Below, in pieces: positions 19,770-27,825 of a stretch of DNA of 64,000 bases. The notes under the pieces are model-generated. The model ran no database searches. It saw only the letters and a program-made list of their open reading frames with translations, and was not told where the DNA came from. The position numbers and the translations under genes are program-made. Source of the stretch: a virus (taxonomy: Duplodnaviria > Caudoviricetes); IMG/VR virus record IMGVR_UViG_3300005611_000007, positions 1 to 64,000 of that record. One strand, given 5' to 3'. Position 1 is the stretch's first letter; every line of letters begins with the position of its first letter.

Positions 19770-20318
19770 ATGATTGTCTTTATACACGGTGCTAATGCTA
19801 CATCAAAGTCCTGGTCATATATCCTATCAAAAATAGATGCGAATCACATTACTGTTGACTATGATAGTTCATTAGGATTCAGAAGAAATATAATATCAAT
19901 CCGAAGTCAGATTCCAACTGAAGAACCTATACAGATTGTTGGTCATAGTCTTGGTGGTATCTATGGACTATATCTAACACAAACACATAATGTCACGAAA
20001 GGATTGACACTTGCCACTCCATATGCCGGTGTCGCCGTGGCAGACTTTATGAAGATCATTTTTCCTGGCTCTCATCTATTGAAGGATATCGGAAAGTATA
20101 GTCGATTCATAACAAAATCTAGAAACATAAAAATAAAGGTACCATGGACTCAGATCATCACAACAAGAGGATCTTTACCATGGTACCTTGAGAGAAATGA
20201 CGGTATCGTTCCTATCAGTTCTATGACTTGTAGAAACGATATGAACTATCTAGAACTACCCTATAACCATTATGAAATTCTTTATTCCGATGAAGTGGTA
20301 AATTTAATTACTTGTTAA
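19770..20318 (+). CDS. Alpha/beta hydrolase (esterase/lipase-like)
   Basis: IHGAN oxyanion motif, GHSLGG nucleophile elbow, TPYAG, NDGIV and NH catalytic His. Confidence 0.85.
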   Translation: MIVFIHGANATSKSWSYILSKIDANHITVDYDSSLGFRRNIISIRSQIPTEEPIQIVGHSLGGIYGLYLTQTHNVTKGLTLATPYAGVAVADFMKIIFPGSHLLKDIGKYSRFITKSRNIKIKVPWTQIITTRGSLPWYLERNDGIVPISSMTCRNDMNYLELPYNHYEILYSDEVVNLITC

Positions 20319-20940
20319 TCAATTCACCAGTCACCACAGTGCGACCAGACACCTCAGCGTCACCATACACCCTAGCGTCACCAAACACCACAGCGTTACC
20401 AGACACCCAAACGCGACCGAACACCCTAGCGTTACCAGACACCTCAGCGTCACCATACACCCTAGCGTCACCAAACACCACAGCGTTACCAGTCACCTTA
20501 GCGTAACCAGACACCATAGCGTCACCAAACACCTTAGCGTTACCAGACACCCTAGCGTTATCATACACCCTAGCGTTATCATACACCTTAGCGTTACCAG
20601 ACACCACAGCTTCACCATCCACCACAGCGTTATCAGACACCTCAGCGTCACCAGACACCACAGCGTTATCAGACACCTTAGCGTTACCAGTCACCGCAGC
20701 GTCACCATACACCCTAGCGTTATCAGACACCTTAGCGTTACCAGTCACCGCAGCGTCACCATACACCCTAGCGTTACCAATCACCACAGCGTCACCAGAC
20801 ACCACAGCGTTATCAAACACCATAGCTTCGCGTCCAACATAGGCGGTCTCAGAAACAGTAGCGGTATCAGCAACCCATCCACCACCATTAGAATGCTTGT
20901 GAGCAGGAACTAGTCCGTTGCCAAAATCAAAAGTAGTCAT
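20308..20940 (-). CDS. Left-handed beta-helix hexapeptide-repeat protein, paralog 1
   Basis: NGGGWVADTATV followed by many V-x-(G/D)-x-A-x repeats (18-bp units); GGAG RBS before the ATG at 20940. Confidence 0.8.
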   Translation of the reverse strand: MTTFDFGNGLVPAHKHSNGGGWVADTATVSETAYVGREAMVFDNAVVSGDAVVIGNARVYGDAAVTGNAKVSDNARVYGDAAVTGNAKVSDNAVVSGDAEVSDNAVVDGEAVVSGNAKVYDNARVYDNARVSGNAKVFGDAMVSGYAKVTGNAVVFGDARVYGDAEVSGNARVFGRVWVSGNAVVFGDARVYGDAEVSGRTVVTGELINK

Positions 20941-20942
20941 AG

Positions 20943-21341
20943 TTACTCCCTCCAATCGGAAATCGTGACGATGGACTTCAACTCTTCGACAAGAGCCCGG
21001 CCCGCATCGGTAAATAGAATACCCTGATTATATACCCAATGCTCAATGTCTTGGGAATGATAGAAGGTATCCTGTCCAGTCATCCACCGAAGAGCAGTGG
21101 TACGGTCACCCGCACCTGCTTCGATAACTGAGGCAATCTCAGCCTCGAACTCACGAAGAGCGCGAGCCTCTTCCTCCGCCTCCTCTTCTTGCCGAATATC
21201 GAAAGCACGACCAACGGAATCCCAAATCTCCTGCTTGCGGGCAGGAGTGACGGTGTAGAACTCATGACCACGTGGGCGGAACCCATAGGCGTCCTTGTGG
21301 AAATCGGAGAAGATGTTTTCGTCGTAGGTGTAAACAGTCAT
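20943..21341 (-). CDS. Hypothetical early protein
   Basis: FSDFHKDAYGFRPRG motif familiar from phage proteins; AAGGAG RBS and a sigma70 promoter upstream. Confidence 0.7.
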   Translation of the reverse strand: MTVYTYDENIFSDFHKDAYGFRPRGHEFYTVTPARKQEIWDSVGRAFDIRQEEEAEEEARALREFEAEIASVIEAGAGDRTTALRWMTGQDTFYHSQDIEHWVYNQGILFTDAGRALVEELKSIVTISDWRE

Positions 21342-21687: not shown

Positions 21688-22275
21688 ATGGCATCAAAAA
21701 CTTTTGACGAAATTCTGGCTCAGGGAGTGAGGTCTGGACAATTACCAGCTAGGACACAAACGTCTAGAGATTGGTTTCGCAACGCGGCGAGAACGACTAG
21801 TGTTACGCCGGAAGCTGTTGTTAGGGGTGAGAGAGCGAAATATAAAAATAGGACCACAATAGGAAAGATGTATCTTTTCAATTATGATCCTAAAACAAAA
21901 GATACGTTACCATATTATGATAGATATCCTTTGATCTTTCCAGTAGAAGGAGCTCCAGGTGGTTTCTATGGTATCAACATGCATTATTTACCACTAACTC
22001 TTAGAGCAAAGTTAATGGATAAATTATACGAACTGTCTACGGACAGAAGATACGATGAAAAAACTAAATTGAAGATTGGTTATCAGATATTAAAAGCGGC
22101 TTCTCGTTTTGCTCCATTTAAACCAACTTTCAAAAGATATCTATCAAATCATGTTAGATCTAGATTTATTGAAATATCGTCTAGTGAATGGGATATTGCC
22201 CTATTCCTACCACTGGAAAGATTTGCGAAAGCGTCGAAGACTAAAGTCTGGGCAGACTCAAGAAGGATGATATAA
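21688..22275 (+). CDS. gp2: DNA end protector protein gp2
   Basis: GKMYLFNYDPKTKDTLPYYDRYPLIF...GINMHYLP...KRYL..HVRS. Confidence 0.92.
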   Translation: MASKTFDEILAQGVRSGQLPARTQTSRDWFRNAARTTSVTPEAVVRGERAKYKNRTTIGKMYLFNYDPKTKDTLPYYDRYPLIFPVEGAPGGFYGINMHYLPLTLRAKLMDKLYELSTDRRYDEKTKLKIGYQILKAASRFAPFKPTFKRYLSNHVRSRFIEISSSEWDIALFLPLERFAKASKTKVWADSRRMI

Positions 22276-22847
22276 TGCCTATAGATTTAAATAGATTTAC
22301 TTCTATCTTTAATAATGTTCCTCCAGCGAGAGAAAGCGACTACGAAATTATAATAAGTGGTCCAGCTGGAATTGGTGATCCAGATTTAACATATAGAGCA
22401 GACTCTGTACAATTGCCTGGAAGAAGTATTGCTACAACAGAACAGGTTTATATTGGACCTCAAAGAAAAGTAGCGTATGCAGCACTTTATCTAGAGACTA
22501 CTATAACTTTCATAGAATCAGACGATTATCGTGTTAAAGAGTATTTTGATAGATGGTTAGATAAGGTTGTAGGAACACATCGAATTAATCGTACCGTATC
22601 AGATGGTTCGAGATTTCGTTCTGGTTATTATGATGATTATATTGGAACGATAGATATTTACAATCTACGAAGAACTGGTGCCAAAGGATATAATACAAAA
22701 TTGATAGAAGCATATCCTATACAAGTCGCTCCAGTAAGTTTATCTTGGGCTTCTGATGCTATACCTAGAATTAATGTAACGTTCACTTATAGATATTATG
22801 AACAAAACGCAGCAGGATCAACAAGTACTGCTAATTTATCTACTTAA
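22275..22847 (+). CDS. Tail tube-fold protein (gp54/gp19-like)
   Basis: VQLPGRSI...YFDRW...YYDDYIG...EAYPIQV..VSLSW...VTFTYRYY. Confidence 0.75.
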   Translation: MPIDLNRFTSIFNNVPPARESDYEIIISGPAGIGDPDLTYRADSVQLPGRSIATTEQVYIGPQRKVAYAALYLETTITFIESDDYRVKEYFDRWLDKVVGTHRINRTVSDGSRFRSGYYDDYIGTIDIYNLRRTGAKGYNTKLIEAYPIQVAPVSLSWASDAIPRINVTFTYRYYEQNAAGSTSTANLST

Positions 22848-22875: not shown

Positions 22876-23580
22876 ATGGCTTTACCATCAATAGTAGCTC
22901 CACACTTTACGACTAAACTACCGTCAAATGGAGTTGATGTTAAATTTAGACCTTTTCTTGTAAAAGAGGAAAAGTTGCTTCTCATAGCTGCTGAAAGTGG
23001 TGAGAGAAAAGACATGATAGACGCTGTCTGTCAAATGTTAAAAAATTGTGTTATTGAGCCGGAGGATATTGATCCTTATAGTTTAGCTTATTTTGATTTT
23101 GAACATATATTTCTTCTTATAAGATCTAAAAGTGTAGGAGAAACGGCACAGTTTAAACTAAAACATGATGTGGAAAATTGTGGCCACATGAACGATGTAG
23201 AAGTCAAGTTAGATAATATTGTTTATAATACAAATGAAGATCATACTGATACATTTTTATTGAACGATAATATTGGTGTGAAGATGAAGTATCCTAATAT
23301 AAATTCTTTGACTGACTTTATGGATATTGATCCTACAAATGTTCTTGATATTTTTTCTACTAGTATAGAATATGTTTACGATCAAGAAACGGTTTACAAC
23401 GATTTTACAAAAAAAGATGTTTTAGAATTTTTAGAAAGTCTTTCTAAAGAGCAATTTGATAAAATTACAAGATTCTTTCAAACTATGCCTGGCAGTCGTT
23501 TAAGAGCAAAGTATAAATGTGAAAAATGTGATGAAGAGGTTGAAACAGATGTATCTGGCTTTGAAGATTTTTTTGGATAA
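22876..23580 (+). CDS. gp26: Baseplate hub assembly protein gp26
   Basis: MALP...LPS...FRPFLVKEEKLLL...IRSKSVGE...FF.TMP...CxxC...GFEDFF. Confidence 0.9.
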   Translation: MALPSIVAPHFTTKLPSNGVDVKFRPFLVKEEKLLLIAAESGERKDMIDAVCQMLKNCVIEPEDIDPYSLAYFDFEHIFLLIRSKSVGETAQFKLKHDVENCGHMNDVEVKLDNIVYNTNEDHTDTFLLNDNIGVKMKYPNINSLTDFMDIDPTNVLDIFSTSIEYVYDQETVYNDFTKKDVLEFLESLSKEQFDKITRFFQTMPGSRLRAKYKCEKCDEEVETDVSGFEDFFG

Positions 23581-23759
23581 GTCTCTGTCATACGAGTCTA
23601 GCTAGTTATTATAGACTTAACTTTTCGTTGATGCAATATCATAAATATTCTTTGACTGAATTAGATGATATGATACCGTTTGAGAGAGAAATATACATTC
23701 AGATGTTGCTAGAACATCTGAGAGAACAAGAAGAGAAGAACAGACAAAATGCTTCCTAA
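23568..23759 (+). CDS. gp51: gp51-like hub assembly chaperone, probably reached by -1 frameshift from gp26
   Basis: Not in the ORF track. The -1 frame reads FFWISLCHTSLASYYRLNFSLMQYHKYSLTELDDMIPFEREIYIQMLLEHLREQEEKNRQNAS*. The first ATG (23631) lies inside the conserved block. Confidence 0.8.
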   Translation, partial: FFWISLCHTSLASYYRLNFSLMQYHKYSLTELDDMIPFEREIYIQMLLEHLREQEEKNRQNAS

Positions 23760-25776
23760 CCCTAATCCATCTGGTGCAGCTACTTCTGATATGATGGCGT
23801 TATCATTTCAAGAAAGCACCATGTATGCTGTTCAAAGCATAGATGAGAATATCAGAGGTCTTAGAAAATTATTCGCATCTGTTTTGAAGGTAAACACTGA
23901 AAATTTAAACTTAGATAAAAAACAACAGACTACTGAGGAAATTAATCGTGCTAGAGAAAGAGCGGCGGCCGCTGAAGAAAAAAGAGAGTCTAAATTTGGT
24001 ACTACTTTAAAAAGCGCGGCGACGGACGTAAAAGATAAAGCTATAGAAGTAGGAAAGGGTATATCTCTTGGTGGTGTTTTAAGTACTCTTCTTGGTGGGG
24101 CGCTTCTAGCAGCATTTTTTGCTCCAGAAAAATTTAATAAAATTGTTCAATCTATTAAAGAAAAAGTAGAAGAATACGGACCTTCTATAATGAAAGGTAT
24201 TGGAAATTATCTTAGTCAATTAAATTTTTCTGATCTTGTTGTTACTGGTATCCTTGGTGTTAGAGGAGGTATAATATTCTCTCTATTTAAATTTGCAGGA
24301 AACTGGTTAAAAGAAAAATTAGAAGGATGGTTAGGTACATCATTTGATGGATGGTTTGGAGAAAACGCTGGTGAGATAGCTGGTGCAGTAGGATTGTTTG
24401 CTACGCTAATGCCAGGAACCACTATAAAACTTATTACAGGTTTATTTAGTTCATCGGGCAGTCTTATAAAAACAGGTCTTGAAGGTGCCCAAAAACTTCT
24501 TCCAGAAGCGTTAGGGAAAGGTCTTACACCTAAGGCTTTAGGTATTGCTGGTATTGCTGTTGCCGCTGGGATGATGGCAAAAACGGCAGTTAACGGTATA
24601 GCAGATTGGTTTACGAAAAAAGATTTTAGTGAAGAAGCTAATACTGCAATGGGAAAGGCTATGACGGGTCTTCAAGAAGCGACACCGGCATTAGCAAAAG
24701 TTGGAGGTCAAGCACTTGAGTTTGCAGCGTATGGTGCTGCATTAGGTAGTGTAATTCCAGTTATAGGTACTGCTATAGGAGCGGCTATAGGTGGACTAGT
24801 AGGAGCAGTAGTCGGTATATTTTCTCTTGATGATGCAGAAATACAAGGTTTTAAAGATGGTATGTCAAAGATATGGGATGCTATTATAGATGGATTGTTT
24901 AGTGGTGTTGCCAATCTATTAACCGGCCTTCCTTCTTGGGCGCTCCCAGATGGTGTAAAAGCGTTTATAGAAAAATATTCAGATACACAGGGAATGAAAG
25001 AACAAGAAGGAACAGAAAAAGTTGAAAAAACAGAAGCATCAAAAAATAAAAGTTTAGAAAAATATGTAACTACTGAAGAAGAAATTGCTTCCGTAATGAA
25101 CGAAAATGGTATGGTTGATGATAAGAAACTTCAAGCTCTTAATAAAGAACGTGAGGCTAAAAACCTAGATCGTATAAGCTCAGCCGATGCAGGAAGTATA
25201 TTTAGATCAACACAACAGGCTGCTAAAGCAAAACAGGACCTTGAAGAAGTAAAAGCAGCACCAGCAAAAGAACTTGAAGAAATAGATAAACAAATTTTAG
25301 AAAAACAAAACCAGATCGAGGAAGCGAAAAAGAAACAAATAGCGGACGATAAGCTAACATATGAAGGAAGGCGCGGTGAACTAATAGATAAAAGAGAACA
25401 GGAAATTGAAGAATTATCAAAACGAAGAGAAAAACTAACTAGAGGAAACGATGCATCTCCCATGGCTCCCATGGGTGATCAAGGAAACTACCCATTGTTC
25501 GAAGGCCAAGGCCAAACAATGGCACCAACATTTAGAGCTGGATCTCTTAGAATGAATGGTTTAGAAGCGGAGATGGTTTCAATGAATAACGCAATGAAAC
25601 CATCAGCTCCTATATTTATAGCGTCACCTAGTACCTCTTCACCAACTAGTGTAGATCAATCACAGACTATTATCAATAATAGTAATCGTCAAACTACTAT
25701 TTCTGGTGGTATTTCTCAATATACACAATCGCCAACAAGATCTGCTGCGTCTCGATTTTCTGTAGCTTTTACATAA
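23749..25776 (+). CDS. Tape-measure-like protein (gp29-like)
   Basis: 675 aa, helical, with Gly/Ala hydrophobic segments (GAALGSVIPVIGTAIGAAIGG) and coiled coils; follows gp26/gp51. Confidence 0.6.
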   Translation: MLPNPNPSGAATSDMMALSFQESTMYAVQSIDENIRGLRKLFASVLKVNTENLNLDKKQQTTEEINRARERAAAAEEKRESKFGTTLKSAATDVKDKAIEVGKGISLGGVLSTLLGGALLAAFFAPEKFNKIVQSIKEKVEEYGPSIMKGIGNYLSQLNFSDLVVTGILGVRGGIIFSLFKFAGNWLKEKLEGWLGTSFDGWFGENAGEIAGAVGLFATLMPGTTIKLITGLFSSSGSLIKTGLEGAQKLLPEALGKGLTPKALGIAGIAVAAGMMAKTAVNGIADWFTKKDFSEEANTAMGKAMTGLQEATPALAKVGGQALEFAAYGAALGSVIPVIGTAIGAAIGGLVGAVVGIFSLDDAEIQGFKDGMSKIWDAIIDGLFSGVANLLTGLPSWALPDGVKAFIEKYSDTQGMKEQEGTEKVEKTEASKNKSLEKYVTTEEEIASVMNENGMVDDKKLQALNKEREAKNLDRISSADAGSIFRSTQQAAKAKQDLEEVKAAPAKELEEIDKQILEKQNQIEEAKKKQIADDKLTYEGRRGELIDKREQEIEELSKRREKLTRGNDASPMAPMGDQGNYPLFEGQGQTMAPTFRAGSLRMNGLEAEMVSMNNAMKPSAPIFIASPSTSSPTSVDQSQTIINNSNRQTTISGGISQYTQSPTRSAASRFSVAFT

Positions 25777-25819: not shown

Positions 25820-26779
25820 TTATTTTAAAGAGATTAATCCTTTATCCTCAAGTGGGCCATCTGCCATTTGCATACGTTGAAATAGATTGACAAATTCCTG
25901 AATACCAGGAATTTTTGCGATATGTTCTTTCTTCACATAGTATTGAAGAGACCGAGAGATTTTATACTTACCGTCTGCAATGTTTTTAAATGTAGGTTCG
26001 AAACCTTCAACAATTGAACCCTGGATAACATCAGAGTTTTGGTCCAAGAATGAGTATCCAAAAATGCCGAGAGAATTTGGATCTGATTGGAGCTTCTGAA
26101 CAATTAGATTATCGTTCTCACCTGCTTCAACATAAACACCATCTTCACGGATGTGGTGAACAATATTCTTAAACTTCTTCTTGTCCTTTTTACGAAGAGC
26201 TTTTAGTTCTGAAATTTGTTTAGCTCCACCTTCCATAGCGAGTTCTAGAAAAGCGTCACGCGTACCAGATGTTGGAGGAGGACCAAGTACCCTTATCTTT
26301 ACATTAGGAAGAGATGGGTCTACATCAGACCAATACACATATGGATTTGGTACTAACTTACCATCTACTGGAACCTTAGCGGCAAGAGCTAAAAAAATGT
26401 GTTTCAATTGAAAATTATATTGAGTTGCTGATTTATCGTTAGCAATTACAATACCATCAAAACCAATCTCGTATTCGATTGGTGTTACACCATTCTTTGC
26501 ACAACGCTCTACTTCCGATTTCTTAATTTTGCGTGAAGCATTTGTGATGTCTGGGTGTTTTTCTCCGACTCCAGCGCAGAACAATTTGAATCCACCACCT
26601 GAACCAGTTGATTCTACAACAGGCGTTTTAAATCCGCTAGTCCTACCAAACTCTTCAGCAACTGTGGTGGAAAATGGATATACTGTTGAAGAACCAACGA
26701 TACGAATCTGCTCCCTTGCAGATGCAGATGTTACAATAAGTACCGATGTTAAGGCAGCGAGTGTTAATGTTTTAATCAA
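25820..26779 (-). CDS. pstS: Phosphate ABC transporter substrate-binding protein PstS
   Basis: Signal peptide; GSSTVYPF, ESTGSGGG, NASRKIK and GPPPTSGTRDAF motifs (alphaproteobacterial type); TTG start with AAGGAG RBS. Confidence 0.93.
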   Translation of the reverse strand: MIKTLTLAALTSVLIVTSASAREQIRIVGSSTVYPFSTTVAEEFGRTSGFKTPVVESTGSGGGFKLFCAGVGEKHPDITNASRKIKKSEVERCAKNGVTPIEYEIGFDGIVIANDKSATQYNFQLKHIFLALAAKVPVDGKLVPNPYVYWSDVDPSLPNVKIRVLGPPPTSGTRDAFLELAMEGGAKQISELKALRKKDKKKFKNIVHHIREDGVYVEAGENDNLIVQKLQSDPNSLGIFGYSFLDQNSDVIQGSIVEGFEPTFKNIADGKYKISRSLQYYVKKEHIAKIPGIQEFVNLFQRMQMADGPLEDKGLISLK

Positions 26780-26934: not shown

Positions 26935-27825
26935 TCAATCCTCCTCTGCCAATTTCTTGAAGAATGATAGACTATCGTCATCTTCTTCATCATCATTACT
27001 CCAAGGAACACTATTTTCTTCCTTAGCTGCCGCAACACGAGGTTGAGGTGCTGGAGCAACTTCACTTAGTTCAGGACCACCATCAAGACCAAGAACACGA
27101 TTGAGTCGAGTCTTTTGTTCTTCATATGACTTGAACTCAGATACATCAAGAAACTTAGATAGTGGATGTTGAGAGTTCCAAATCTCTTCAATCCTTGCAT
27201 CATCGTCAGATACAGCAGAACTCTTATCAAACTCTGATAGGTCATAGTTCTGATAACCTTCATATCGACGAATCTTCAACTTGAAATTAGCACCCTCCCA
27301 GAAATCGAAAGGATTCATTGGATCTTCATCTTCAAATTGAGGTTGCATTGCATTCTGCATCTTTTCGAAGATCTTTGCGCCATACCGATAAAGAAACACT
27401 TGACCCTCATTCTGAGGATTTGCCTTATCTGATACGACTAAAACATTGGAATAATAGTTTAATCGACGCTTCTGCTTACGAACAATATCCTTGTTGGACT
27501 CTACACCTGAGTTCCAAAGCATAGAGTTGTGTTCGCAAACTGGACACTTTTCGCCAATTGTGGTTCGACATTCGTCAATCCACCAACCACCAGGACCCTG
27601 GAATCCATGATTGTATACCTTGACCCATGGAAGTTCTTCACCAGGGGCTGCTGGTAGGAATCGAATGACTGAGTATCCGTTTCCTGCCTTGTCTACTTCA
27701 GGCTTCCAGATATTTTCGTTTGTGTTGAGTTCGTCTCGTGCCGTAATCTTTTCGGCTGCTGTTACTAGGTCACTAAGTGATGACTTACTTGACTTCTTGA
27801 GTGCGGCAAAAGATGTTGCTGCCAT
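26935..27825 (-). CDS. gp32: Single-stranded DNA-binding protein gp32
   Basis: WKPEVDKAGNGYSVIRFLP, HGFQGPGGWWI, NPFDFWEGANFKLK and an acidic tail ending SFFKKLAEED. Confidence 0.95.
   Translation of the reverse strand: MAATSFAALKKSSKSSLSDLVTAAEKITARDELNTNENIWKPEVDKAGNGYSVIRFLPAAPGEELPWVKVYNHGFQGPGGWWIDECRTTIGEKCPVCEHNSMLWNSGVESNKDIVRKQKRRLNYYSNVLVVSDKANPQNEGQVFLYRYGAKIFEKMQNAMQPQFEDEDPMNPFDFWEGANFKLKIRRYEGYQNYDLSEFDKSSAVSDDDARIEEIWNSQHPLSKFLDVSEFKSYEEQKTRLNRVLGLDGGPELSEVAPAPQPRVAAAKEENSVPWSNDDEEDDDSLSFFKKLAEED

Follow-up and report, generated by a model that had tools for sequence, protein, structure and literature searches.

A slippery heptamer at the gp26-gp51 junction of a marine T4-like phage and its relatives: a probable programmed -1 frameshift and a candidate tail chaperone pair

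The window analysed here is a stretch of 64,000 nucleotides from an uncultured marine phage of the T4-like group (positions 1 to 64,000 of IMG/VR record IMGVR_UViG_3300005611_000007), and the locus in question is the end of its gp26-like gene, where a second, overlapping reading frame encodes a gp51-like module. The genes run in the order tube-fold protein, gp26, gp51 and tape-measure-like protein (Table 1). This is the order given in an earlier, preliminary description of the same DNA, and it rests on profile matches, with the last gene placed by position and size. The gp26-like protein matches the family PF12322 (T4_baseplate) with 187 bits against a curated cut-off of 24.5, and its gene is the only PF12322 gene in the 127-kb record that holds the window (estimated to be 70% complete). 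Genes syntenic with the tube-fold gene in ValKK3 and Ci1 are annotated as 'baseplate-tail tube initiator' or 'T4-like gp54'. On the opposite strand, upstream, are the baseplate genes gp48, gp53, gp5, PAAR, gp25, gp6, gp7 and gp8. A megablast search of the window's nucleotide sequence against a collection of isolate phages returned no match.

At its 3' end, the gp26-like gene reads GGC TTT GAA GAT TTT TTT GGA TAA in the 0 frame. The -1 frame opens one codon before the T-run, reads FFWISLCHTSLASYYRLNFSLMQYHKYSLTELDDMIPFEREIY... and stays open up to a TAA at 23757-59. The preliminary description had reported an in-phase slippery heptamer within GAT TTT TTT GGA TAA, preceded by a TGA that shuts the -1 frame shortly before it opens into gp51-like coding sequence; both features are present in the window where it had placed them, and the coding assignment agrees with a match to the family profile phrog_634. 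The first candidate start codons of the -1 frame are a TTG at 23628 and an ATG at 23631, which are module codons 21-22, and no Shine-Dalgarno (SD) motif of the GGAGG type (GGAG, AGGA or GAGG) occurs in the 20 nt before this ATG. As had been noted before, the conserved gp51 block therefore has neither a start codon nor an SD ahead of it in the window.

The arrangement is very probably a programmed -1 ribosomal frameshift, which would yield a pair of the lambda G/GT type from one gene: gp26 of 234 aa and a gp26-51 fusion of 294 aa, made up of residues 1-233 and the 61-codon extension. Across the junction, the predicted fusion reads ...GFEDFF-WISLCHTSLASYYR..., with ...EDFFWISLCH... and ...GFEDFFWISLCHTSLASYYR as predicted junction peptide sequences. 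A frameshift fusing gp26 to gp51 was the central proposal of the preliminary description, and it gains support from a heptamer and -1 offset found at 85/85 junctions, from the lack of a start codon at most of them and from a colinear gp51 in phage T4.

Table 1. Coordinates of the features at and around the gp26-gp51 junction (positions in the window)
Feature	Position	Strand	Evidence or remark
DNA end protector gp2 gene	21688..22275	+	T4-like tail/baseplate block
Tube-fold protein gene, gp54-like baseplate-tail tube initiator	22275..22847	+	PF23849 Phage_TTP_2 2e-7; phrog_45 tail tube 2e-27
gp26-like gene, 0 frame, 234 aa (predicted short product)	22876..23580	+	PF12322 4.4e-55; phrog_150 2e-59
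TGA closing the -1 frame	23562..23564	+	One codon before the slip site
Slippery heptamer T_TTT_TTT (U_UUU_UUU)	23568..23574	+	X_XXY_YYZ phase, on gp26 codons Phe232-Phe233
-1 frame extension, 'gp51' module, 61 codons and TAA	23574..23759	+	phrog_634 3.4e-25
0-frame stop TAA	23578..23580	+	One codon past the heptamer
Tape-measure-like protein gene, 675 aa, gp29 position	23749..25776	+	Glycine zipper, coiled coil; weak family matches

The identity of the -1 module is supported by several comparisons. For a 64-residue -1 peptide, the match to phrog_634 ('baseplate hub assembly catalyst', gp51) has an E-value of 3e-25, and BLASTP aligns the peptide with residues 211-244 of T4 gp51 (E 3e-5). On phrog_150, a profile of 282 positions, the gp26 open reading frame (ORF) covers positions 5-232 and the -1 peptide covers 231-279; the two stretches abut, so that the two frames run on from one another within a single family profile. 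Strong purifying selection acts on both frames, and across 70 sequences the module is the more conserved of the two, with a mean column identity of 59% vs 44% for gp26. Conservation of the module begins at FF, and residues F1, F2, L11, N18 and F19, all of which lie ahead of the window's first ATG, are invariant or nearly so. The module is predicted to form three helices at 11-24, 29-32 and 37-62 (predicted local distance difference test, pLDDT, 81), and in this model a start at M22 would remove most of helix 1. When the extension was modelled as a complex with the upstream tube-fold protein, the score was 0.00, which gives no verdict and is neutral on binding.

The junction was then compared across relatives by script, using a set of 85 junctions comprising the window, four isolates and 80 IMG/VR loci, mostly 34-42% identical to the window in gp26. 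Single-linkage clustering at 50% identity groups them into 30 clusters. All 85 junctions carry an in-phase T_TTT_TTN, as T_TTT_TTC (45), T_TTT_TTT (37) or T_TTT_TTA (3), and all 85 have a gp51-like module in the -1 frame, with homology beginning exactly at the heptamer. The conserved T_TTT_TT(T/C) and constant -1 offset that the preliminary description had expected among T4-like aquatic phages are thus borne out at every junction. The 0-frame stop lies 0 or 1 codon past the heptamer in 78/85 and at most eight codons past it. The open stretch of the -1 frame ahead of the heptamer measures only 0-1 codons in 22/85 and no more than 29 in any locus.

Codon choice at the junction is also constrained. 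The base before the T-run, the third (wobble) base of a Ser, Asp, Asn, Ala or Gly codon, is T in 85/85, against a background of 0.60 in the same genes, while the first Phe codon of the heptamer is TTT in 85/85, against a background of 0.70. Counting the 30 clusters, the joint probability of both fixed synonymous positions is about 1e-11. Three loci encode Phe-Leu instead of Phe-Phe in the 0 frame (TTT TTA), as does Rhizobium phage RHph_I1_9 (TTT TTG), and each keeps the slippery heptamer. The observation itself, a heptamer and a -1 offset at 85/85 junctions with fixed synonymous positions, is confirmed and lies far beyond chance.

Five further families were inspected by hand, beyond these 85: the heptamer is present in Otagovirus, two Straboviridae lineages and Pootjesviridae (as T_TTT_TTG) and absent in Vibrio phage D509. 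Pseudomonas phage Astolliot, Citrobacter phage Ci1 and Aeromonas phage P19 all have T_TTT_TTC followed by the -1 module. In Aeromonas phage P19 (OM339718; L089), the -1 gp51 module after T_TTT_TTC, at 1905-2073, is wholly unannotated.

Homopolymer runs are error-prone, and a single true open frame broken by a sequencing error, or a pseudogene, is one conceivable source of such a junction. A search with the module as query for in-frame gp26-module fusions returned three singleton metagenome proteins, none of them convincing, and two of the three were rejected as read-throughs into the next gene. The third, P0003, is a 190-aa ENA metagenome protein in which the C-terminal part of gp26 and the gp51 module share one frame and the junction between them is scrambled (…VIWGTIGFRIGTVHMDL…). 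P0003 could be taken to favour an artefact, but it is a single sequence, its junction region looks like the result of an indel further upstream, and its probable origin is an assembly indel, not a natural fusion. The same frame break occurs at the same base in 85 independent assemblies, including isolate genomes of several families, and a sequencing error is therefore excluded. Moreover, the window's own break appears, with no indel, in a contig assembled from DNA and in three that come from RNA libraries of different studies, and the purifying selection on both frames argues against decay. An artefact or decaying gene is thus given practically no probability.

Most of the relatives carry an additional element upstream of the slip site. 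A GGAGG or GAGG motif, which is SD-like, stands 14-15 nt before the heptamer in 57/85 relatives, where the codons for a conserved L-E-G motif create it. Glu in this motif is encoded by GAG in 43/62 and by GAA in 19, against a GAG background of 24% (p = 3e-14), and the codon before it ends in G in 36/62, against about 21%. An SD-like element upstream of the heptamer is the arrangement known from the E. coli dnaX -1 frameshift. The likeness extends to the fixed spot of the motif and to a codon choice biased toward it, and judging from these sequence patterns the motif is probably a dnaX-type frameshift stimulator in the relatives.

The length and phase of the T-run also bear on transcriptional slippage, in which RNA polymerase would add one U on the run and the edited mRNA would encode the same fusion. 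The product would be identical, polymerase slippage is known at runs of 8-9 T, and 17/85 relatives have runs of this length. However, 47/85 have only six T's, the run always lies in the ribosomal X_XXY_YYZ phase, and a fixed distance to an SD-like stimulator is characteristic of ribosomes. In three metatranscriptome libraries, contigs span the run with no inserted letter, which is weak evidence as they report the majority form only and the libraries may contain DNA. Taken with these points, slippage by the polymerase is very unlikely.

Phage T4 provides a natural control, as it has the same two proteins as separate genes. T4 gp26 (208 aa) and T4 gp51 (249 aa) both belong to PF12322, like the window gene, with 216 and 178 bits respectively, and this short and long pair corresponds to the predicted short and long pair of the window. 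T4 gp51 spans phrog_150 positions 13-280, its residues 147-246 also match phrog_634, and its 'DVF' aligns with the 'DFF' at the window junction. A BLASTP comparison of window gp26 with T4 gp51 gave no significant pairwise match, and the kinship is visible via profiles only. By these profile alignments, T4 gp51 is a gp26 paralog with the same C-terminal module in one polypeptide, colinear with the predicted -1 product. Unlike the single window gene, which is predicted to make both forms, T4 has two diverged genes that lack a slip site and are divergently transcribed, and its tape-measure gene, 29, is separated from gene 51 by genes 27 and 28.

T4 gene 26 ends GAG TTC TTT, a non-slippery coding of its terminal Phe-Phe. 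The preliminary description had suggested that the terminal 'DFF' of gp26 homologs reflects the slip site. This stands for the codon choice, but not for FF itself, which is a protein motif that T4 gp26 retains in the absence of a slip site.

In T4, gp26 and gp51 are listed as hub assembly chaperones, and gp51 is described as an essential protein with no known function that is not found in virions (Leiman et al. 2010, PMC3004832). In cyanophages and marine vibriophages, gp51 proteins have been described as lacking the first ~200 residues, with no explanation, and gp51 as 'missing' in Aeh1 (Sullivan et al. 2010, PMC3037559). A frameshift would explain both the truncated marine gp51 and the 'missing' Aeh1 gp51. 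Like the latter, the unannotated module of Aeromonas phage P19 probably reflects an annotation gap and not a loss. In Acinetobacter phage vB_AbaM_Berthold (MN709128.1, 119798-120547), a T4-type gp51 is annotated as 'tape measure protein assembly chaperone'; the chaperone label for the two-gene form has thus already been used by at least one annotator.

Structural comparison points in the same direction for gp26. An AlphaFold model of the 234-aa gp26-like protein, built from the 70-sequence alignment (pLDDT 89), was compared with 48,161 PDB representative chains without a prefilter. The joint top matches were 3FGX, 2OB9 and 3KLU, each with Z 7.6 over 86-87 residues (root-mean-square deviation 4.1-4.4 A) and each superposing on model residues 1-97, and the next match had Z 4.5. 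These three structures, Rbstp2171 (3FGX), HK97 gp13 (2OB9) and YqbN (3KLU), are phage tail assembly chaperones (PMC9603447). Because the top three matches are coherent and a gap separates them from the rest, the N-terminal domain of gp26 (about residues 1-95) is assigned a tail-assembly-chaperone fold, with a match strength that is moderate and on the basis of a predicted model. In a Foldseek search of the PDB, 2OB9 had the highest probability (0.75, E 0.3), and there was nothing at E <= 0.001; a sequence-profile search of the PDB with the gp26 alignment found no match. The three chaperones differ from gp26 in having only 7-9% sequence identity to it, and no more than the N-terminal 40% of gp26 is matched.

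The second domain of gp26 is beta-rich and contains Cys and His residues. H..C.H and CxxC motifs occur at residues ~96-103 and ~214-217, where the family consensus has C...C and CPKC, and T4 gp51 gives weak zinc-ribbon matches. Lambda-type tail assembly chaperones offer no parallel for a zinc ribbon within such a protein.

From these elements, a mechanism can be proposed. Most ribosomes would read GAU UUU UUU GGA UAA and release the 234-residue protein. A fraction would slip back one base on U_UUU_UUU, with both Phe-tRNAs re-pairing with UUU in the -1 frame; these ribosomes would read UGG next and continue through 61 codons to give the 294-residue protein. The long form would be the equivalent of T4 gp51 and the short form that of T4 gp26. 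The pair may then act like lambda gpG/gpGT, with a shared N-terminal chaperone-fold domain that would hold the tape-measure protein encoded just downstream. The small helical C-terminal domain of the rare long form may couple this complex to a hub or tube component at the start of tail and hub assembly, and neither form would be expected to stay in the virion.

Several observations weigh against the frameshift reading, or against parts of it. The upstream SD-like element of the relatives is absent in the window and in its three closest relatives (L005, L006 and L007), which sets this nearest clade apart from dnaX, and no conserved downstream hairpin was found. That the element is missing because the host does not use SD sequences was considered and ruled out, as about half of the window genes have SD-like motifs. 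In the 60 nt past the heptamer, the window has no convincing RNA structure (z = +0.25), and no general downstream structure was found across the 85 loci (mean z -0.6); z falls below -2 in 17 loci, some with a hairpin over the H-N-S / N-Y-Y codons. The recognisable signals in the window are therefore only the heptamer and the nearby stop, and because both the upstream SD-like element and a convincing downstream structure are missing, frameshift efficiency there could be low.

Other points of this kind concern the chaperone role. By the structure-comparison tool's own calibration, a Z of 7.6 lies in the middling range. The 675-aa gene, which shares 11 nt with the end of the -1 extension, is called tape-measure-like from its position, size and composition, from one syntenic annotation and from a weak gp29 match, and it lacks significant homology. 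Its family-profile matches are weak only (a glycine zipper, and the tape measure profile phrog_33360 at E 0.04), its C-terminus matches T4 gp29 weakly (E 0.04), and a sequence-profile search of the PDB with the protein found no match. In Cr30, the gene two positions downstream of the module, past one small hypothetical ORF, is annotated as a tail tape measure protein. Finally, the G/GT-like division of labour between the two forms is a reasoned analogy, suggested by fold, gene position and T4 genetics, and an analogy is all that it is.

Start codons in the relatives raise a further difficulty. An ATG lies 3-6 codons past the heptamer in 25/85 loci (~30%), often overlapping the gp26 stop as TAATG or TGATG, and through coupling a free gp51 peptide may be produced as well in some lineages. 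In addition, Vibrio phage D509, a distant relative inspected by hand, has no heptamer and has TAATG instead. Its gp26 relative (OZ195733; L090, around 1782) ends ...TCA CTT TTC AAG TAA, with the TAATG providing a start for a gp51-like -1 ORF. The D509 lineage may have switched to coupling, or it may slip on U_UUC alone.

These cases speak for two separate proteins, in which the gp51 module would be translated on its own by re-initiation or coupling at the gp26 end, and the T-run would merely encode a conserved Phe-Phe. In nine further loci a GTG or TTG follows the heptamer by no more than six codons, database annotations split gp26 and gp51 into two genes, and FF is conserved in T4 gp26 too, without a frameshift. 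However, 51/85 loci have no ATG, GTG or TTG between the upstream -1 stop and six codons past the heptamer, L065 has none within 40 codons, and the window has no start before module codon 21 and no SD there. The absence of a gp51 start that had been described for the window thus extends to most relatives, but not to the ~30% with a nearby ATG. Ahead of any possible start, the residues hardly vary and make up helix 1. Protein conservation does not explain the fixed synonymous positions or the Phe-Leu variants that keep the heptamer. T4 gene 26, for its part, uses TTC TTT for its Phe-Phe, and T4 gp51 is a single chain colinear with the fusion. On balance, separate translation of the module is unlikely, and a programmed ribosomal frameshift is preferred.

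Phage P2, a myovirus, makes a -1 slip on the U-run T_TTT_TTG, just upstream of its tape-measure gene. This is the exact heptamer of Rhizobium phage RHph_I1_9, whereas P2's chaperone belongs to an unrelated sequence family, is much smaller and comes from another tail lineage. The junction shares with lambda gpG/gpGT a heptamer close to the chaperone gene's 3' end, a -1 extension that lacks a start of its own and a tape-measure-like gene next downstream, and the modelled gp26 N-terminal domain appears to have the fold of solved tail assembly chaperones. It differs from lambda in several respects: there is no detectable sequence similarity, gp26 has roughly double the length and an additional beta domain that contains Cys/His, the heptamer is U_UUU_UUY in place of the G_GGA_AAG of lambda, and the extension is a helical module of ~60 residues.

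The -1 frameshift of tail assembly chaperone genes, as in lambda gpG/gpGT, is a textbook example of recoding. It has been described as general in long-tailed phages 'except T4' (Atkins et al. 2016, PMC5009743). The same source summarises the work on lambda G/GT (Levin 1993; Xu, Hendrix and Duda 2004, 2013, 2014) and mentions the E/E+E' tail chaperone frameshift of phage P2. A literature search for a gp26-gp51 frameshift, in which subscription journals were incompletely covered, found no report. If the frameshift reading is correct, the 'except T4' exception would fall for a large group of T4-like phages, including abundant ocean cyanophages and the uncultured marine phage of the window. It would also explain marine 'gp51' genes that look like 20% stubs of the T4 gene (PMC3037559), and it would give a testable role to T4 gp26 and gp51, long described as essential but of unknown function (PMC3004832). 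In hundreds of deposited genomes, the junction is annotated as two genes or, as in Aeromonas phage P19, the second part is missed; a ribosomal-slippage coding sequence would be warranted in these records.

The single-gene frameshift form occurs in Kyanoviridae, Pootjesviridae, Otagovirus, Cr30 and several Straboviridae lineages. A wider reading, which the evidence tips only slightly in favour of, is that gp26 and gp51 are the missing chaperone pair of all T4-like phages and that the frameshift form is ancestral. The T4 subfamily would then have replaced it by gene duplication, keeping one copy short (gp26) and the other long (gp51). If so, the T4 'hub assembly catalyst' would gain a mechanistic role, and the T4 subfamily would represent a natural experiment in which selection preserves the stoichiometry of the two forms and not the frameshift itself.

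Some neighbouring genes are also of note. A 215-aa ORF at 20308-20955 (-), which sits between head-completion and tail genes, consists almost entirely of short V-S/T-G-N/D-A-x-V repeats (GDAxVxGNAKV...) and resembles a beta-helix or bactofilin-like repeat protein. Directly past the tape-measure-like gene, on the opposite strand, lies a pstS-like gene for a phosphate-binding protein, which adjoins a gene for a gp32-type single-stranded DNA-binding protein with a CPVCEH zinc motif; this pair occupies 25820-26779 (-) and 26935-27825 (-).

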